From Acidobacteriota bacterium (lineage in GTDB: Bacteria > Acidobacteriota > UBA890), in NCBI GenBank assembly GCA_965216935.1, contig OZ244217.1:3488279-3552278 (forward strand): DNA of 64,000 bases. The letters run 5' to 3'. Positions 38,788 to 56,005 of this stretch are shown one piece after another; the first letter of the stretch is position 1, and every line of letters starts with the position of its first letter. The position numbers and the translations under genes are program-made. The notes beneath the pieces were generated by a model, which saw only the letters and a program-made list of their open reading frames with translations, did not search any database and had not been told where the DNA came from.

Positions 38788-39444
38788 TCAAGGGCCCCCC
38801 TGGCGCACGACTTTCAACATCGCGTCGACGCTCTCCTGCACCGATTGATTACTGGTATCGATGTGGATCGCGTCGGGGGCGGCTCGCAGAGGTGACACGC
38901 GTCGGCTGGTGTCGATGCGGTCGCGCTCCCGCACGTCCTCGACCACGCGGGCACCGTCACGGGTCTCACCCAGCTGCGCCGCGCGACGCGCCATCCGCGT
39001 ACCTTCGTCCGACGTAACGAAGAACTTGAAGTCGGCGTCGGGTAGCACCACGGTGCCGATGTCGCGGCCCTCGAGCACCCCGCCTTCACGCCCGGCCTCC
39101 TGCTGGCGGGGAACCATCCAGCGGCGTACGGCCTCGATCGCCGCCACCTGAGCCGCGGCCTTGCCAACCTCGGGGTCTCTCAGCTGATCGGTCACGTCGA
39201 TGCCGTCGACCCGGACCCGAAAGCTCTCCGGATCCGCCTCGATCACAAGGTCGAGCCCCTCCAGGCGAGCGACGATTTCGCCTTCTGCTTCGAGCCCCTC
39301 GCGCGCCACGACCCAGGCGACGGCCCGGTACATGGCTCCTGTATCCACGTAGGGCAACTGCAGCCGGCGCGCCAATTCCCGCCCGAGCGTGGACTTCCCC
39401 GAGCCGCTCGGACCGTCGATGGCGATGCGCAAACGCCCGCTCAT
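38788..39444 (-). CDS. cmk: Cytidylate kinase
   Basis: IAIDGPSGSGKST, DTGAMYRA, EGRDIGTVV. Confidence 0.97.
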   Translation of the reverse strand: MSGRLRIAIDGPSGSGKSTLGRELARRLQLPYVDTGAMYRAVAWVVAREGLEAEGEIVARLEGLDLVIEADPESFRVRVDGIDVTDQLRDPEVGKAAAQVAAIEAVRRWMVPRQQEAGREGGVLEGRDIGTVVLPDADFKFFVTSDEGTRMARRAAQLGETRDGARVVEDVRERDRIDTSRRVSPLRAAPDAIHIDTSNQSVQESVDAMLKVVRQGGP

Positions 39445-40202
39445 CCCCTGGCCTCCGCCCGCCGTCGCAGGGCTTCCACCTCGGCCGCCGACAACTCGCG
39501 CGCCTCGCCCTCCTCCAGCCCGGAAAGCACCAGCGGGCCGACGCTCGTTCGGATCAAGCGCTCGACCCGGTTGCCGATATCCCGAAACATCCGCCGGATC
39601 TGGTTCTTCTTCCCTTCGTGCAGGACGACGCGCAGCCGGGTGAAGCCCGCATGGGCGCTCCCGGACGCCCCCCCCTCGGGCTCGATGCGCTCGAGAACGT
39701 CGATGTCGCAGGGCATCAAGCGTCGGCCGTCGAGCTCGGGGCCTCGTCGAAGGCGCTCGAGGTCGTCCTCGGCCGGGCGCCCCCCGACCACGACTTCGTA
39801 CACCTTCTCGACGCCCCCACCGGGCTTCGTGATTCGTTGCATCAGCTCGCCGTCGTTCGTCAGCAGCACGAGGCCTTCGCTCTCGAGATCGAGACGTCCG
39901 GCCGGATACAGCCGCTCGGACACGTCGTCGGGAAGCAGGTCGACCACCACCGGCCGGCCGCGGTCATCCCGTGCCGCGCTGAGCACGCCGACAGGCTTGT
40001 AAACGACGAACGAGCGCGCCCGCTCCGCCTGCAGGGGCTTCCCGTCGAGTGTGACCAGGTCCTCGTCCGGGTCCGCCGTCGCGCCGAGCTCGCGGACCTC
40101 GCCGTTGACCGCCACTCGTCCCTCGACGATCAGCGCCTCGGCCTTCCGCCGGGAGGTGACCCCGGCTGAAGCGATGATCTTCTGCAGACGCTGATCGGCC
40201 AC
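39441..40202 (-). CDS. rRNA pseudouridine synthase (RluB/RsuA family)
   Basis: RLQKIIA..G..SRRKAE S4 domain, GRLD, EGKKNQIRRM. Confidence 0.93.
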   Translation of the reverse strand: MADQRLQKIIASAGVTSRRKAEALIVEGRVAVNGEVRELGATADPDEDLVTLDGKPLQAERARSFVVYKPVGVLSAARDDRGRPVVVDLLPDDVSERLYPAGRLDLESEGLVLLTNDGELMQRITKPGGGVEKVYEVVVGGRPAEDDLERLRRGPELDGRRLMPCDIDVLERIEPEGGASGSAHAGFTRLRVVLHEGKKNQIRRMFRDIGNRVERLIRTSVGPLVLSGLEEGEARELSAAEVEALRRRAEARG

Positions 40203-40213
40203 GGGGTTTGAGC

Positions 40214-40496
40214 CTAGGAGTGTGTCCGAGTAATGGGCGGGGTGCCGTTACGGGCACCGTGGGGGCAGATGCAAGGCGCGACGACGTAGGCGATTTCGTG
40301 CATATCGTCGAGGAGTCGCAACGAAGCAGATGCCCCCACGCTGCCCGTAACCCTTCGGGCGCAGGGGGGTTGCGGCGCATATGCTGCGTTGCTCGTCGTC
40401 CCCGATGCGGTCTGCATCGCCTTCCTCCTCGCGCCTTGCCTCTGCTCCGCAAAGCCCCTGCGCGGCACCCCGCCCATTACTCGGACACACTCCTAG
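40214..40496. mobile_element. 283-bp non-autonomous MITE/REP-like palindromic element
   Basis: Perfect 34-bp inverted repeats CTAGGAGTGTGTCCGAGTAATGGGCGGGGTGCCG at 40214-40247 and 40463-40496; CTAG at both ends; two internal hairpin modules; no credible ORF. Confidence 0.8.
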
Positions 40497-41146
40497 CTCT
40501 CGAGGAGCTCTTCGAACTCTTCCGGGTCGGGCAGCTCGTCGAGGTCACGAAGCCCGAAGACCTCGAGGAACTGGCGAGTCGTTCCATACGTAAAGGGCCG
40601 TCCGACCGCCCGCTTGCGCCCGGTGATACGCACCATGCCCTGGTCGCGCAACGTGCGGAGCGAAGCCGAAGGGTCGACACCGCGGATGGCGGCGATCTCG
40701 GCCTGCGTCACGGGCTGACGATACGCGATCACCGCGAGTGTCTCGAGCGCCGCCACCGAAAGCCGGGAGGGCTTCTCCACCTGACGAAGGGCGCGGATCC
40801 AGGCGTCGTACTGCGGTCGGGTGCCGAGCCGGAACCCGCCGGCGACTTCGAGAAGCTGCAAAGCACTGCCGGAGGCCTGCAGCCGATCCGAGAGAAGCAA
40901 CGCAGTGCGCTCCACCATCAGCGCCGAAACTCCATCCGCCCAATCGCGCTCCTGTTTCGAGCCGACGCTCGACATCGCCTGGACGATCTCCTGCACCGGC
41001 ACCGGCTCCTCGGCCGCGTACAGGAGTGCCTCGAGGACGGGAACGACCTGCTCGGCGAGTGTCTCGTCGCCGACCGTGACGCCGGCCGGGTCTGCTTCCG
41101 CTGCTTCTGCCGCCGACATGCGTTGCTCCCGTGTCTCGGCGCTCAT
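40493..41146 (-). CDS. scpB: SMC-Scp complex subunit ScpB
   Basis: LEALLY, LSVAALETLAVIAYRQPVT, GRPFTYGTT..FL..FGL. Confidence 0.96.
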   Translation of the reverse strand: MSAETREQRMSAAEAAEADPAGVTVGDETLAEQVVPVLEALLYAAEEPVPVQEIVQAMSSVGSKQERDWADGVSALMVERTALLLSDRLQASGSALQLLEVAGGFRLGTRPQYDAWIRALRQVEKPSRLSVAALETLAVIAYRQPVTQAEIAAIRGVDPSASLRTLRDQGMVRITGRKRAVGRPFTYGTTRQFLEVFGLRDLDELPDPEEFEELLES

Positions 41147-41895
41147 TGGGCTTGCTCCACCATCTCCGAGGGAAAGACGACAATTTTGCCGAACGAGGCC
41201 TCCTGAAAAGCACGGGCCTCCCCGGAACGAATCAGCTCGAGCAGCGCCAGAAAAGTGGCGATGAGCTTACCGCGCGGGTCGCCCTTCTCGAAAAGCACGT
41301 CGAACGGTAGCGGCTCACCGCCCTGAAGCCGGGTCCGCAACACCTCGACGCGCTCGGCCACGGGGTACTGATCGGCGCTCACCGCGAACAGGGACGGCGC
41401 TTCCAGGTCGGTCAGCAGCTCGCGGAAGGCGGCGACCAAGGAGAAGAGATCGGCCTCCACCACGTCTGTCTGCTGCTCGACGATCCCGCCCGGCTCGGGC
41501 TCGCCACGAAACCACACGGCGGCAACGCGAGCCTCCCGAGTGCGTAGATCGCGCGCCGCGATACGGGTGACCTGATGCTCGACGAGCTGCTCGAGGAGCG
41601 CTTCCTCCTCGGCCGCCAGTTGGTCCGCGTCGCCGGCTACCGACGGGCTGGGAAGCAGCGCCTGCGCCTTCAGGCGCACCAGGCTGGCGGCAACCTCGAG
41701 GAACTCGCTCACCGGCTCGAGATCGATCTGCTCCATGAAACGGAGCATCTCCAGATACTCTCCGGTGATGTCGGCCAGCGGCAGGTCGCGGATCTCGACC
41801 TCGTGGGCGCGCACCAGATGCAGCAGCAGGTCCAGCGGGCCCTCGAATTCACCCACCTGCACCCGATAGCGGTCGTCGATCACCGTCGGTCCCAC
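41143..41895 (-). CDS. scpA: Segregation and condensation protein ScpA
   Basis: FEGPLDLLLHL, TFLALLELI. Confidence 0.96.
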   Translation of the reverse strand: MGPTVIDDRYRVQVGEFEGPLDLLLHLVRAHEVEIRDLPLADITGEYLEMLRFMEQIDLEPVSEFLEVAASLVRLKAQALLPSPSVAGDADQLAAEEEALLEQLVEHQVTRIAARDLRTREARVAAVWFRGEPEPGGIVEQQTDVVEADLFSLVAAFRELLTDLEAPSLFAVSADQYPVAERVEVLRTRLQGGEPLPFDVLFEKGDPRGKLIATFLALLELIRSGEARAFQEASFGKIVVFPSEMVEQAQ

Positions 41896-49659: not shown

Positions 49660-49719
49660 GGGCTAGCATCCAGCCTCTTTTCCTCGTAACCAGACCCATC
49701 ACACCTCCACCACGGCCTG

Positions 49720-51189
49720 CTACCGCGCGAACAAGGCGTCGAGTCGACGGGAACCGACGCCCGGCCGCCGTTGAGCCAGCAGCGCGTAGGAGCCCAGCGA
49801 AGCAAGGACCGCCGGAAAGATCTGATGGACGGTGGTGGCAATCGGGAAGCGCGGCCAGATCAGCAGCACTGCGACCCCGGCGACGATCGAGACGATCACC
49901 GAAGTCCCGTCGCCCTTCCTCCAGAACAGTCCCAGCAAGACGGCCGGCAGGAAACATGCGGCGTACAGCGAGCCGGACAGTACCGTCAGCGCGACGATGC
50001 CGCCGGGCGGACGCAGCGCCACCAGCGCGGTGAGCAGGGCGAAGACGACGACCCACAGCTTCGTACGCGAAAGCTCGGCAGAATCCTCCCCCGTGCCTCG
50101 AAGGACCCCGACGATGTCGCGCTCGGTCGTCGCCGCGACGACCAGCAGGACGCTGTCCAGTGACGACATGGCCGCCGCCACCATGGCGAGCAGCAGGAAG
50201 GCCGTCACTCCGGGGGCAAAGACGTCCCCCCGCGTGAGCAACATCGGCGCCACCTGGTCGGTATCGGAGACACCCTCCGGAATCACGCGCCGGGCATAGA
50301 GACCGATCGGAACCAGCAACGAATACACCAGCGCGAAGCTGGCCGTTGATACCCACGTTCCCACGCGCCGGGCTCCGTCGTCCCGCAGGGCGTAGAACCG
50401 GGACAGCTGACGGGGCTCGGTAACGAACTTCGCCGTGCCCGCCATCAGAACGCCGAGGGTGAAGATGAACGGCTGCGGCCCGCTCCATTCGAACAGATGA
50501 CGGGTTTCGGCGGCGCTCCGCAGAGGCTCCAAGGCTCCCAATCCTCCCGCCGCACGAACGGTTCCGGCGGACAACAGGACTGCCGCGAAGATCATCACGA
50601 CGCCCTGCACGGCGTCGGTCTTCACCACCGAGATGAAGCCACCGATCATCGTGTAGCCGACAACCACGACGAAGACGACCCCGATGGCGGCCCCGTAGGG
50701 GATCCCGAGAAACGACTGCACCAACCCACCGATCCCCTTGAACACCGCGGTCATGTAGAACACGGACGCGAACACGACGATGACGGCAGAAGCCACGCGG
50801 GCCGTGTCGCTGGCGAAGCGGAAGCCGATGAAATCCGGAATCGTCAACGACCCGAGCTTCTCGGTAAAGCGGCGCAAACGCGGCGCCACCCAGCGCCAGG
50901 CGGCGAACGAGAACAGCACTGCCATCGGCGCCAGCAGGAACCAGGCGATGCCCCACTCGTACGACTGTCCCGAGAAGCCGATGAACGAGTTGGTGCTCGA
51001 GTAGGTGGCGAAGAACGAGAAGCCGAGGGCCACGCCGCCGAGAGCCCGGCCGCCGATGTAGTAGTCGGCCACGCCTTTCGTCTCGCGTTTGCCGACCCGA
51101 GCGTGGTGGACGAGCACGAGCGTGTATACGAGCAGGAGCAAGTGCGCCGGCCAATACGTCCTGAGGCTGTCGATGATCACGTCGATCAA
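49720..51189 (-). CDS. Sodium:solute symporter family protein
   Basis: DYYIGGR, TIPDFIGFRF, GGFISVVKTDAVQG, AAAMSSLDS; many TM helices. Confidence 0.92.
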   Translation of the reverse strand: MIDVIIDSLRTYWPAHLLLLVYTLVLVHHARVGKRETKGVADYYIGGRALGGVALGFSFFATYSSTNSFIGFSGQSYEWGIAWFLLAPMAVLFSFAAWRWVAPRLRRFTEKLGSLTIPDFIGFRFASDTARVASAVIVVFASVFYMTAVFKGIGGLVQSFLGIPYGAAIGVVFVVVVGYTMIGGFISVVKTDAVQGVVMIFAAVLLSAGTVRAAGGLGALEPLRSAAETRHLFEWSGPQPFIFTLGVLMAGTAKFVTEPRQLSRFYALRDDGARRVGTWVSTASFALVYSLLVPIGLYARRVIPEGVSDTDQVAPMLLTRGDVFAPGVTAFLLLAMVAAAMSSLDSVLLVVAATTERDIVGVLRGTGEDSAELSRTKLWVVVFALLTALVALRPPGGIVALTVLSGSLYAACFLPAVLLGLFWRKGDGTSVIVSIVAGVAVLLIWPRFPIATTVHQIFPAVLASLGSYALLAQRRPGVGSRRLDALFAR

Positions 51190-53223: not shown

Positions 53224-55937
53224 GCACGATATCTCGCGCCACGCGCCCCTTGCTCGTCGGCGTGTACGCCGCCGCGCTGCGCCTGCTGCCGCGCGAGAGT
53301 CGCCTCGAGTACGCCCCGGCGATGCTCGAGACGTTCACGCGCCGAGCGACCGATCTGCGCGGCGGGATCGTCGTCCACGCTGCCTTCTTGCTACGCGAGC
53401 TCCTCGGCCTGACGCGCCTCCGCGGCTGGAGGACACGGCCTGAGTCGACGCCCGCCGTCGGCCCGCCGAATCGAGGCACCCCCGGCCCGGCCCGTCGAGC
53501 CATGAGCTGGCCGACCGACCTGCGCCATGCCTTCCGGCGACTCCGGCGGGTCCCGGTATTCACTGCCGCGACCGTCATCACGCTGGCCCTTGCCGCCGGG
53601 GGCGCCACCGCGATCTTCAGCGTCGTGCATTCGATTCTCCTCTCCCCCCTTCCCTATCCCGATGCCCACCGACTGGTGGCGATCCGGACCGCGGCGCCCA
53701 GCGCCGGGGTCGACGACATGGAGATGACCATCGGTCTGTACCTCCAGTATCGCGAGCACGTGGACTCGTTCGCCTCCATCGCGCTCTACGATCGCGTCTA
53801 CCGGAACCTCACCGCGGATGGCGAGCCGGAGCGACTCGAGACGATCCAGGCAACCGACGATTTCTTCGCCACCCTGGGTGTCGAAGCCGCCCTGGGGCGG
53901 ACGCTCGGCGCAGTGGACACCGCGGCGGATGCCGAGTCGGTCGTCGTGCTCTCGAATTCGTTGTGGCGCTCACGTTACGGGGCAGACCAATCCGTGATCG
54001 GTCGCACCCTGCTGCTGGACGATCATCCGTTCACCGTGGTGGGCGTCATGCCGGCGGGCTTCGACTTCCCTCGCCCCGGTACCGACGCCTGGACCGCCTG
54101 GCACATCGACCCGGGAAACCTGCCCCTGGTGTCGTTCAGCTTCGATGCGGTGGCGCGGCTGGCGAACGGCGCCACGATCGACAGCACGGGGGCGGAGCTG
54201 CAGCGTGCGATTTCCACCTTTCCGGAGGCCTTCGGCTGGGATCGTGCCGAATGGGAGCGCATGGGCCTGGTCGGGTTTGTCCGCGATCTGAAGGCCCAGA
54301 CCGTCGGTGAAGTCGGCTCGACGCTGTGGCTGTTTGCCGGCGCCGGCCTCCTGGTTCTGCTGCTTGCCTGGGCCAACGTGGCGAACCTTTTTCTGGTTCG
54401 TGCCGAGGCGCGCGTCGGCGAGGCCCGTATCCGCCGGGCTCTGGGGGCGTCTCGCGGGCAGCTCGTGAGGTACTGGATGGCCGAGGGCCTCTGGATCGCG
54501 CTGCTTGCGGCGCTCCTAGGACTGGCGCTCGCGACGGCCGGAATCGACGCTATCGCCGAGCTTGCCCCCGATCTTCCTCGCGTGGGCACAGTCGGCATCT
54601 CCGGGCCGACAATGGCGTTCACCGCGCTTCTTACGCTCTTCGCCTCCCTGGTATTCGGCTCGGTGCCGCTGCTCGGTGGCGAGCGGGCTTCCGTCGACCG
54701 GAGGACGACGGCCGGGGTGGCCGCGCGGCGCCATCGCGAGATCCTGGTCGGCGTGCAGGTGGCGATGGCGCTCACCCTGTCGATCGGCGCGGCACTGATG
54801 CTGCAAAGCGTGAGCGGGATGATGTCGGCCGACCCCGGCTTCGACCGGAGCGACGTGCTGACGTTTCGCATCTCCCTGCCGAGCGCCGGCTATCCCGACC
54901 GCGAGGCGGCTGCCCGACTTCATCAGAGCCTCGTCGATCGGTTGACCGCCCTGCCGGGAATCGACCGTGCCGGGATCGCTCGGTGCCTGCCGCTGCAGGG
55001 CTGGTGCGGCGGGAATCCGGTTTCGAGCCCCGACTCGCCGCTGCCCGAAGAGGCCTTCCGCGACGTCGTCTCGGTGAAGCCCGTGAGTACCGGCTATTTC
55101 GAGACGCTGCGGATTCCGCTGCTCGCCGGCCGGTCGTTCCACCGCACCGATCAGTCTCTGCGCAACGGCGCAGCGGTCGTCAGCGAAGCGCTGGCAGCTC
55201 GCTTGTTCCCCGGCGAATCGCCGGCCGAGGTTCTCGGCAAACGGGTATCCCCTCAATCCGATCCGGGCGTGGACGCCTGGTACACGATCGTCGGCGTCGC
55301 CGCCTCGGTGCAGCGATCCCGCATCGCGGAGCCCGCGGCGGAGATGCTCTACGTGCCCCTTCTCGGGATCGGTAACGATCAGCACCTCGCGCCGATCCGT
55401 GACGTCATCGTTGCAATGCGCACGGACGGCCCGCCGCTGGCCGCCATCGACATGGCTCGCGCGGCGATACGAGACCTGGACGCAAACATCCCGCTGGCAC
55501 GGATCCGCACCCTCGCCGACATTCACGCCGCCGCCTCCGCCCGCAGCCGCCTCACGTCGCTGTTGCTGGCGCTCGCCGCCGGAACCGGCCTGCTGCTCGG
55601 AGCGATCGGCATATATGGTGTCGTCTCCGGGGCGGCGCGCCAGCGCACAGCCGAGTTCGGCGTGCGCGCGGCGCTCGGGGCCCGCGCCGCCGACCTTCTT
55701 CGCATGGTCATGGCCCGCGGCCTGGCGGTGATCGCAACCGGGGTGGTCGCCGGTGTGATCGCCAGCCTGGCGGCGGGCCGGTTCGTCGCCTCGATGCTCT
55801 ACGAGGTCGAGGCCAACGATCCGGCGACGTTCATCGGCGTGATTACGCTCTTGAGCGCCATCGGCGCCCTGGCGACCTGGTTGCCGGCCCGCCGCGCCGC
55901 CCGCATCGATCCCGTCGAGGCGCTCCGCTCGCGCTAG
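53220..55937 (+). CDS. Duplicated MacB/FtsX-like ABC permease (ADOP-type)
   Basis: DLRHAFRRL..P.F, NVANLFL.R, RRALGA and RAALGA in both halves, PARRAARIDPVEALR; coupled to PadR with no ATPase gene nearby. Confidence 0.9.
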   Translation: MSTISRATRPLLVGVYAAALRLLPRESRLEYAPAMLETFTRRATDLRGGIVVHAAFLLRELLGLTRLRGWRTRPESTPAVGPPNRGTPGPARRAMSWPTDLRHAFRRLRRVPVFTAATVITLALAAGGATAIFSVVHSILLSPLPYPDAHRLVAIRTAAPSAGVDDMEMTIGLYLQYREHVDSFASIALYDRVYRNLTADGEPERLETIQATDDFFATLGVEAALGRTLGAVDTAADAESVVVLSNSLWRSRYGADQSVIGRTLLLDDHPFTVVGVMPAGFDFPRPGTDAWTAWHIDPGNLPLVSFSFDAVARLANGATIDSTGAELQRAISTFPEAFGWDRAEWERMGLVGFVRDLKAQTVGEVGSTLWLFAGAGLLVLLLAWANVANLFLVRAEARVGEARIRRALGASRGQLVRYWMAEGLWIALLAALLGLALATAGIDAIAELAPDLPRVGTVGISGPTMAFTALLTLFASLVFGSVPLLGGERASVDRRTTAGVAARRHREILVGVQVAMALTLSIGAALMLQSVSGMMSADPGFDRSDVLTFRISLPSAGYPDREAAARLHQSLVDRLTALPGIDRAGIARCLPLQGWCGGNPVSSPDSPLPEEAFRDVVSVKPVSTGYFETLRIPLLAGRSFHRTDQSLRNGAAVVSEALAARLFPGESPAEVLGKRVSPQSDPGVDAWYTIVGVAASVQRSRIAEPAAEMLYVPLLGIGNDQHLAPIRDVIVAMRTDGPPLAAIDMARAAIRDLDANIPLARIRTLADIHAAASARSRLTSLLLALAAGTGLLLGAIGIYGVVSGAARQRTAEFGVRAALGARAADLLRMVMARGLAVIATGVVAGVIASLAAGRFVASMLYEVEANDPATFIGVITLLSAIGALATWLPARRAARIDPVEALRSR

Positions 55938-56005
55938 CAGGTCGTGCTGAGCGTGTGGTGAATCGGGCGAAGGGAGATCGCGCCCGAGGACGAGGCGGGC
56001 CGCCG

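Follow-up and report, generated by a model that had tools for sequence, protein, structure and literature searches.

The closest described counterparts of the element reported here are the insertion sequences (ISs) of the IS1182 and IS5 families and their MITE derivatives, with which it shares about 20 terminal nt (19 of 21 positions), the CTAG flanks that surround the ISs and the association with DDE transposases containing DUF772; only the tips are common to both, however, and the 220-bp core of the element does not occur in the ISs. Textbook MITEs have conserved ends, between which the interior drifts. Correia elements of Neisseria (CREE/NEMIS), which measure approximately 100-155 bp, possess a single family of terminal inverted repeats (TIRs) and carry IHF, promoter and RNase III features, are comparable in being small and bounded by TIRs, in duplicating a TA, in lying often beside or within transcription units and in forming long hairpins in mRNA. 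They are nevertheless distinct, having no known sequence similarity to the present family, which is 280 bp long with two internal hairpins and many classes of ends, and which is found in Acidobacteriota and in PVC metagenome-assembled genomes (MAGs). ERIC, RUP, BOX and REP/BIME sequences are likewise dispersed, structured, non-coding repeats co-transcribed with their neighbours, but REP requires a RAYT transposase, none of which is encoded in the genome studied here, and ERIC, RUP and BOX lack the core of this family. Finally, and by analogy only, animal CORE-SINEs, V-SINEs and Deu-SINEs retain a conserved central domain while exchanging mobilisation-specific ends between partners, although these are eukaryotic retroposons moved by LINEs via RNA, whereas the present family consists of DNA elements with TIRs.

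The locus was analysed within a window of 64,000 nucleotides (C1:3488279-3552278) from an Acidobacteriota genome of 5.92 Mb, with 66.8% G+C and an estimated completeness of 96%. The element spans 283 bp (positions 40214-40496 of the window) and represents the full-length, two-module form of what is designated below as subfamily A, with module 1 lying on the left on the plus strand. Its left TIR (40214-40247, + strand) starts with CTAG, its right TIR (40463-40496, + strand) ends with CTAG, and the two 34-nt repeats are 100% complementary to each other; the right CTAG provides the TAG stop of scpB, all of this as the original prediction had described. Between the TIRs lie two hairpin modules, also correctly predicted. 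Module 1 (M1; 40247-40351, with the plus strand as its sense strand) is a conserved imperfect hairpin with the motifs GATGCAAGGCG, GGCGAT, ATCGTCGAGGAG and GCAGA, the arms of which (40247-40272 and 40326-40351; 26 nt) are 88% complementary. Module 2 (M2; 40359-40463, + strand) also forms a local hairpin, with 26-nt arms (40359-40384 and 40438-40463) that are 81% complementary, and is a more degenerate, inverted copy of M1: over 75 nt, the cores of the two modules (40262-40336 and 40374-40448) show 72% complementarity, which identifies them as inverted copies of one motif. The modules are separated by a central mini-hairpin (40352-40358, + strand) composed of CC, a 3-nt loop and GG. It had been predicted as a CCC-TTCG-GGG tetraloop, but actually reads CCC-TTC-GGG, and the family keeps only two C-G pairs (CG in 22 of 22 and 20 of 22 sequences, respectively) around a variable 3-nt loop. 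At the module ends the sequence is GTTACGG...CCGTAAC, an order which we take to be opposite to that of integron attC core sites. The element is without coding capacity: its three ORFs had no Pfam matches, no reading frame is open in all of 22 aligned members, and gap runs of a single nucleotide account for 79 of the 172 runs in their alignment.

All genes around the element are encoded on the minus strand, in the order scpA, scpB, element, rluB, cmk and a gene for a six-domain S1 protein. The scpB gene (40493-41146; Pfam SMC_ScpB, E-value 5e-47) ends with a TAG stop codon at 40493-40495, corresponding to the CTA of the right CTAG and apparently rebuilt from the duplicated TA and the terminal C/G of the element. 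The rluB gene (39441-40202) starts 11 nt past the left end of the element, its GTG start codon (40200-40202) lying 290 nt after the scpB stop, a distance that shrinks to 11 nt if the element is removed. Both scpA (41143-41895) and cmk (38788-39444) overlap their respective neighbours by 4 nt. This gene order by itself suggests that the element would be co-transcribed with scpA-scpB-rluB-cmk. Scanning of positions 39900-40800 for promoters and terminators returned 0 and 0 sites, with neither a sigma-70-like promoter nor a U-tract terminator. No related transposase is encoded in the window, in agreement with the original prediction, as the DUF772, DDE_Tnp_1 and DUF4096 matches of the genome are all located outside C1:3488279-3552278.

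Comparison with related genomes revealed the empty site. The search for ScpB succeeded in 23 of 26 relatives, in 22 of which scpB and rluB are both present at the locus and are separated by an alignment gap of at most 103 nt between ScpB and RluB, versus 290 nt here; none of these 22 loci thus holds an insert of the size of the element, and none of the 12 junctions that were read directly contains it. The junction of one relative from the same genus reads ...gaaggCTAGgagg..., and in the other relative of the same genus the scpB stop is TGA. As anticipated for an insertion into a stop codon that leaves the gene intact, scpB keeps its stop and the C-terminus of ScpB is intact in comparison with relatives. 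The element was therefore, with high probability, newly inserted at the scpB stop in the source lineage and is specific to it. In a different family of the order, a remnant of about 60 nt carrying a subfamily C end sits exactly at the scpB stop CTAG (L058, G016:C2, approximately 2050-2123), an insertion that occurred independently of the one in the window but at the same site. Short-read contigs from samples X1 and X2 cover the locus in pieces, those on the rluB side reaching 40241/40243 and those on the scpB side beginning at 40468; none of the contigs of these two samples joins across the element, and no movement was observed. Sample X2 also contains two joints that skip 78 and 82 nt inside M1, on short pieces which may stem from other copies.

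The element belongs to a multi-copy family, as had been proposed. A BLAST search of the source genome with the element gave 66 matches, and a search with an nhmmer family profile gave 87 matches merging into 56 loci, 20 of them near full length. Reading of the copies distinguished subfamilies with a common interior and different ends. Subfamily A, with ends CTAGGAGTGTGTCCGAGTAATGG..., comprises the scpB copy, which is its sole full-length representative in the genome, together with three copies of 199-205 bp, single copies of 72 and 54 bp, and fragments. Subfamily B, with ends TAGCAGGGTGCGGAAAAACTCC, has two copies, the core of which is 92% identical to that of the scpB copy, and subfamily C, with ends CTAGCAGGCCGTGGTGAAAGTGT, has sixteen two-ended copies of approximately 281 bp, besides numerous ends that are solo or short. 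Where they overlap with the scpB copy, the short copies of subfamily A match it at 98-99% identity, and three of them (G000:C1:221628, 953913 and 1606343) have kept M2 and lost the interior of M1, each with breakpoints of its own; they are thus deletion derivatives rather than precursors, and M1, the better-conserved module, is the one that is repeatedly deleted. Several degenerate relatives were also encountered. Within the window, positions 49664-49723 hold a subfamily C remnant of about 60 bp, in which nothing separates the 3' arm of M1 (GCCTCTTTTCCTCGTAAC) from the right TIR, with CTAG on the left and CTAC on the right, and positions 55934-55965 hold a degenerate left end resembling subfamily C (CTAGCAGGTCGTGCTGAGCGTGT...) with no recognisable core behind it. 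Elsewhere in the genome (G000:C1:3843323-3843416), a lone M1-like hairpin with no recognisable TIRs lies directly after a TGA codon, beside an apparent tRNA gene on the opposite strand.

The sequence flanking the copies is informative about the target. CTAG occurs at 1,718 sites in the chromosome, versus approximately 18,000 expected from base composition, being about ten times rarer than expected. It is concentrated outside coding spans, with only 276 sites inside them according to a crude gene map in which 65% of the chromosome is covered and each ORF lacks its first 30%, and about a quarter of the sites (423 of the 1,718) are gene stops as called with a crude predictor based on G+C by codon position. 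Of the subfamily A end matches, 17 of 21 adjoin CTAG, as do 65 of 121 ends of subfamily C. In the left ends of subfamily C with a TA flank (xTAG), x is C in 31 cases, T in 3, G in 3 and A in 1, while the G is constant; in right ends with a TA flank (CTAy), y is G in 34 cases, A in 4, C in 1 and T in 1. Several two-ended copies even have unlike outer bases, for example GTAG...CTAG. A variable outer base next to a fixed inner base, together with these unlike pairs, fits the duplication of TA, with the G and C being part of the element and CTAG being the preferred context. Judging from few informative pairs, it is therefore more likely that the duplication is TA within a preferred CTAG than all four bases, although the flanks of one subfamily B copy, TTAG...TTAG, could equally result from a duplication of 4 bp. 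As to the CTAG duplication for which the original prediction had proposed a test, CTAG is present at both ends, but a full 4-bp duplication is disfavoured by the flank statistics. At the scpB locus, a target-site duplication is present as TA within CTAG on both sides, its length (2 or 4 bp) being inferred; the putative left copy is TA at 40215-40216, within CTAG 40214-40217, and the putative right copy is TA at 40494-40495, within CTAG 40493-40496, and the element proper most likely runs from G40217 to C40493. A preference for stop codons, which the original prediction had also proposed to test, was seen in the two-ended elements, 17 of 28 of which abut a predicted gene stop (one right end being counted twice); gene stops make up 34 of the 92 CTAG sites flanking elements, versus 389 of the 1,626 other CTAG sites. 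This habit is explained by the rarity of the target, by the share of it that TAG stops provide and by the element's rebuilding of the stop.

Candidate transposases were sought through shared ends. In the source genome, a 1.5-kb IS was recognised in four copies from subfamily C ends paired at a distance of 1,498 bp; it encodes a 472-aa transposase with DUF772, a DDE_Tnp_1_6 match of 21.9 bits (below the Pfam cut-off of 25.1) and IS1182 as its best NCBIfam match (158.6 bits, below the cut-off of 270). This resident IS has 21-23 terminal nt in common with subfamily C. One 1.3-kb IS with subfamily B-like ends encodes an IS5-family transposase (NF033581, 280 bits); with the four copies of the 1.5-kb IS, it accounts for all five DUF772 genes of the genome. 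A third IS5-family element is present in five identical copies (e.g. G000:C1:520581-521326), with DUF4096 and DDE_Tnp_1 in two frames and ends CTAGGGCCTGTTAACAC; all five copies are inserted in CTAG, and in 5/5 the right CTAG is followed by T. The ISs and MITEs of this genome have only their terminal 21-23 nt in common and the core of approximately 220 bp is absent from the ISs, which rules out that the element is a simple internal-deletion derivative of an IS. No transposase was found within 177 loci (256 kb) around cores, and no element combining subfamily A ends with a transposase was detected either in the source genome or among the 26 genomes of the same order. At C1:5017855 and C1:3099119, where a subfamily A end stands alone, no obvious transposase ORF adjoins it. 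Among 401 genomes of the phylum, subfamily A-type ends were found in 40 (a tally that includes the unpublished G070 and G160), with a single pair 1,527 bp apart, in G196. This pair delimits a 1.53-kb IS (G196:C157) with CTAG on both flanks, the first 21 nt of which match the scpB element at 19 positions and the 429-aa transposase of which, with DUF772 and DDE_Tnp_1, belongs to the IS1182 family (NF033551, 377.8 bits vs the cut-off of 270). An IS1182-type partner with the same ends, as originally envisaged, does therefore exist, but in another genome: the source genome has no close homologue of the G196 transposase. Since no transposase with subfamily A ends is present in the source genome, the scpB copy is either orphaned or cross-mobilised by the resident 1.5-kb IS1182-like element; in both cases, the shared ends point to an IS1182/IS5-type DDE transposase as the probable mobilising enzyme.

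Thermodynamic and comparative analyses were applied to the fold of the interior. The 283-nt sequence folds at -192 kcal/mol on the plus strand and -190.9 kcal/mol on the minus strand (z-scores of -15.2 and -13.6, respectively), with 0 of 200 shuffles as good. While the single-sequence minimum free energy structure prefers long-range pairing between M1 and M2, RNAalifold applied to 22 diverse full-length members gave the TIR stem and two local hairpins. In this alignment, the local hairpins have 94.2% of cells paired and 33 of 62 pairs changed on both sides, with 0 of 500 shuffles as high, versus 74.3% of cells and 16 of 78 pairs for the long-range pairing, a level reached by 213 of 500 shuffles; the long-range pairing was consequently rejected. 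The conserved structure that had been predicted is thus upheld in the form of the two local hairpins and not in that of the long M1:M2 pairing. Compensatory change in the module stems, also predicted, was strong; in M1, 77 distinct copies showed 96.9% of cells paired and two-sided change in 22 of 26 pairs (227 cells), with 0 of 500 shuffles as high and slid controls at 29-51%; 65 of these copies were retrieved by a pattern fixing 18 nt of the 5' arm, where invariance is by construction, and the relatedness of the copies means that shuffle controls overstate their independence. Covariation of the TIR 'pairs' results from the requirement that a single transposase fit both ends. M1 is much better conserved than M2, and its conserved positions form purine-rich internal loops, including tandem G·A/A·G and the run GAGGAG, whereas the apical loop is variable.

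The substitution pattern is also unequal between the strands. Within M1 stems of the 77 copies, G·U/U·G pairs number 59 versus 15 for A·C/C·A, and in 104 module sequences the respective numbers are 70 and 18; in 93 of the 104 copies the sense strand has the better fold of the two strands, partly due to the conserved G·A loops. The wobble bias and the better folding of the sense strand point to folding of one strand, either RNA or single-stranded DNA (ssDNA). Orientation relative to the upstream gene is unbiased, being sense in 7 and antisense in 5 cases in the source genome and 3 and 4, respectively, in other genomes (10 and 9 in all), which argues against a role tied to read-through transcripts of the host. 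The M1 sense strand coincides with the leading-strand sequence in 14 of 20 full copies and is opposite in 6, which is not significant and likewise speaks against such a role.

The core extends far beyond the source genome. A search of a species-representative genome collection with the M1 pattern recovered at least 115 stretches, and among the matches listed 93 are real members according to the profile search. These 93 include 83 from records titled as Acidobacteriota or one of its classes, 7 from PVC-labelled MAG loci (Planctomycetota, Brocadiaceae or Chlamydiota), 2 from records titled 'uncultured bacterium' and 1 from a 'Deltaproteobacteria' MAG; one of the Planctomycetota matches is on a scaffold of 5.97 Mb. 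When the phylum was sampled evenly, using genomes assigned to Acidobacteriota by record titles and including the unpublished G070, the core was present in 56 of 401 genomes and in 35 of 229 genera. No match to the pattern was found in viral contigs, and none was found in a plasmid collection. At least eight unrelated TIR classes surround the same two-hairpin core, nearly all of them flanked by [C/T]TA[G/A]. By sequence comparison, the identity of the core and the identity of the ends are uncoupled: the scpB copy and subfamily B of the same genome have a core identity of 0.92 and an end identity of 0.49, while the reverse holds between the scpB copy and L158 (0.74 and 0.89, respectively) and between a subfamily C copy of the source genome and L110 (0.62 and 0.89, respectively). 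The core of the scpB copy is 0.86 identical to that of a subfamily A copy of G003. One locus (L034, G019:C15, 1464-1741) is a hybrid, its left end (TAACAGGGTGCTGAAAAACTC) resembling subfamily B and its right end subfamily C; the presence of unlike ends in a single copy provides direct evidence of end exchange.

The family appears to be uncharacterised, as the original prediction had surmised. Covariance models of Rfam 15 gave nothing related at E-values up to 1 in the window region and nothing at E-values up to 0.1 in 10 loci of other members. A weak match to the gyrA RNA over the 3' end of scpB (window 40490-40573, minus strand; 24.2 bits vs a gathering score of 45, E-value 0.002) and a match to a plant miRNA family, both sub-threshold, were taken as chance. 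No description of the element family was found in the literature searched; the supplementary sequences of a general MITE census (PMC11602168) could include members, and in PMC8841776 MITEs figure only in the reference list.

Taken as a whole, these data very probably identify the element as a MITE of the IS1182/IS5-type superfamily, moved in trans by a DDE transposase; the non-autonomous mobile element that had been predicted is recognisable in its multiple copies, in the empty site of relatives and in the IS with matching ends in G196. It would be a non-coding passenger whose transposase, of IS1182/IS5 type, recognises about 20 nt at each end. Insertion would have taken place into the TA of the CTAG formed by the last sense base of scpB and its TAG stop, and after duplication of this TA the element's own first G and last C would regenerate CTAG on both sides, preserving the scpB stop. 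The flanks alone would also suit a transposase of the IS630/Tc1-mariner family, since these enzymes duplicate TA and prefer CTAG; such an origin is nonetheless disfavoured and very improbable, as the genome has no match to the IS630-type DDE_3 domain (PF13358) and the ends of the family match those of ISs that encode DUF772/DDE_Tnp_1 transposases of the IS1182 or IS5 family and have the same CTAG flanks. The strong structure of the element and its position inside an operon could suggest instead a fixed cis-regulatory structure of scpAB-rluB or a REP/REPIN-type palindrome moved by a RAYT enzyme. Both are refuted by the copy number and the empty sites, namely the 56 dispersed family loci in the source genome and the site lacking the insert in 22/22 relatives; moreover, the RAYT transposase that the original prediction had considered is absent (0 matches to Y1_Tnp, PF01797, in a genome 96% complete), and long TIRs with TA flanks are not features of REP sequences.

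Interpretation of the core is a separate matter from the MITE identity of the element. In the mechanism considered here, the conserved two-hairpin core, which has been combined with many different transposon ends, would act as a fold of one strand, RNA or ssDNA, aiding the spread of the element or its toleration; this reading of the core draws on stems kept by compensatory change and on the one-strand wobble bias of M1. In its broadest form, put forward tentatively and judged somewhat less probable than its opposite, M1 may be a functional one-strand fold repeatedly refitted with the termini of at least eight IS5/IS1182-type transposons in Acidobacteriota and PVC bacteria, a bacterial counterpart of the CORE-SINE principle. 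A more specific version, which would add to the MITE identity and is possible though unlikely, sees in the core, and mainly in M1, a functional structured RNA that uses MITE ends as a vehicle and possibly serves as a stabiliser, a processing site, a terminator of the upstream mRNA or a small regulatory RNA. Covarying stems around conserved purine-rich internal loops with a varying apical loop, a G·U count on one strand four times that of A·C, the better folding of the sense strand and the persistence of the core at approximately 60-75% identity beneath exchanged ends are all in its favour, as is the location of 17 of the 28 two-ended copies directly after a gene stop, where transcription would reach them. 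On the other hand, ssDNA also tolerates G·T wobble, the conserved G·A loops by themselves account for part of the energy asymmetry, no orientation is preferred with respect to the upstream gene, the scan around the scpB copy detected no sigma-70-like promoter or U-tract terminator, and no Rfam family matches. Conversely, the hairpins may be functionless, since palindrome arms can also stay alike by intrastrand repair instead of selection: hairpin-templated repair or arm conversion, together with recent common descent, would then keep the palindromes, and the variety of ends would reflect recombination among decaying elements. The cores do cluster by genome and not by end type (0.92 between subfamilies A and B of the source genome vs 0.86 between its subfamily A and that of G003), suggesting homogenisation within genomes, the hybrid L034 with unlike ends exists, and M1 interiors have been deleted repeatedly. 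This explanation is nevertheless considered improbable, even more so than that of a structured RNA, because arm conversion predicts perfect palindromes, whereas asymmetric internal loops of conserved sequence persist in 77 copies from many genomes, and because it does not predict the excess of G·U on one strand; M1 is, moreover, far better conserved than M2.

As a MITE, the scpB element is ordinary in kind. It illustrates why elements that seek CTAG land on stop codons, given that CTAG is rare, that a quarter of its occurrences are gene stops and that the stop split by insertion is rebuilt. For annotation, the family is relevant in that its 280-bp repeats break short-read assemblies and sit within operons. 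The family departs from textbook MITEs in that conservation is reversed: the ends are exchanged, whereas the hairpin core, with its covariation and strand bias, is retained in many families of one phylum as well as in PVC-labelled MAGs. The main question that it raises is why such a core is conserved beneath interchangeable transposon ends. If the core is functional, the family would make it feasible to study how selection acts on what a non-autonomous element carries, and would supply a new structured motif of nucleic acid from a phylum that has received little study. Should the core indeed be the unit that is maintained, then it is the core, and not the ends, that would persist in these genomes, either through better transposition or as a portable RNA structure placed after stop codons.
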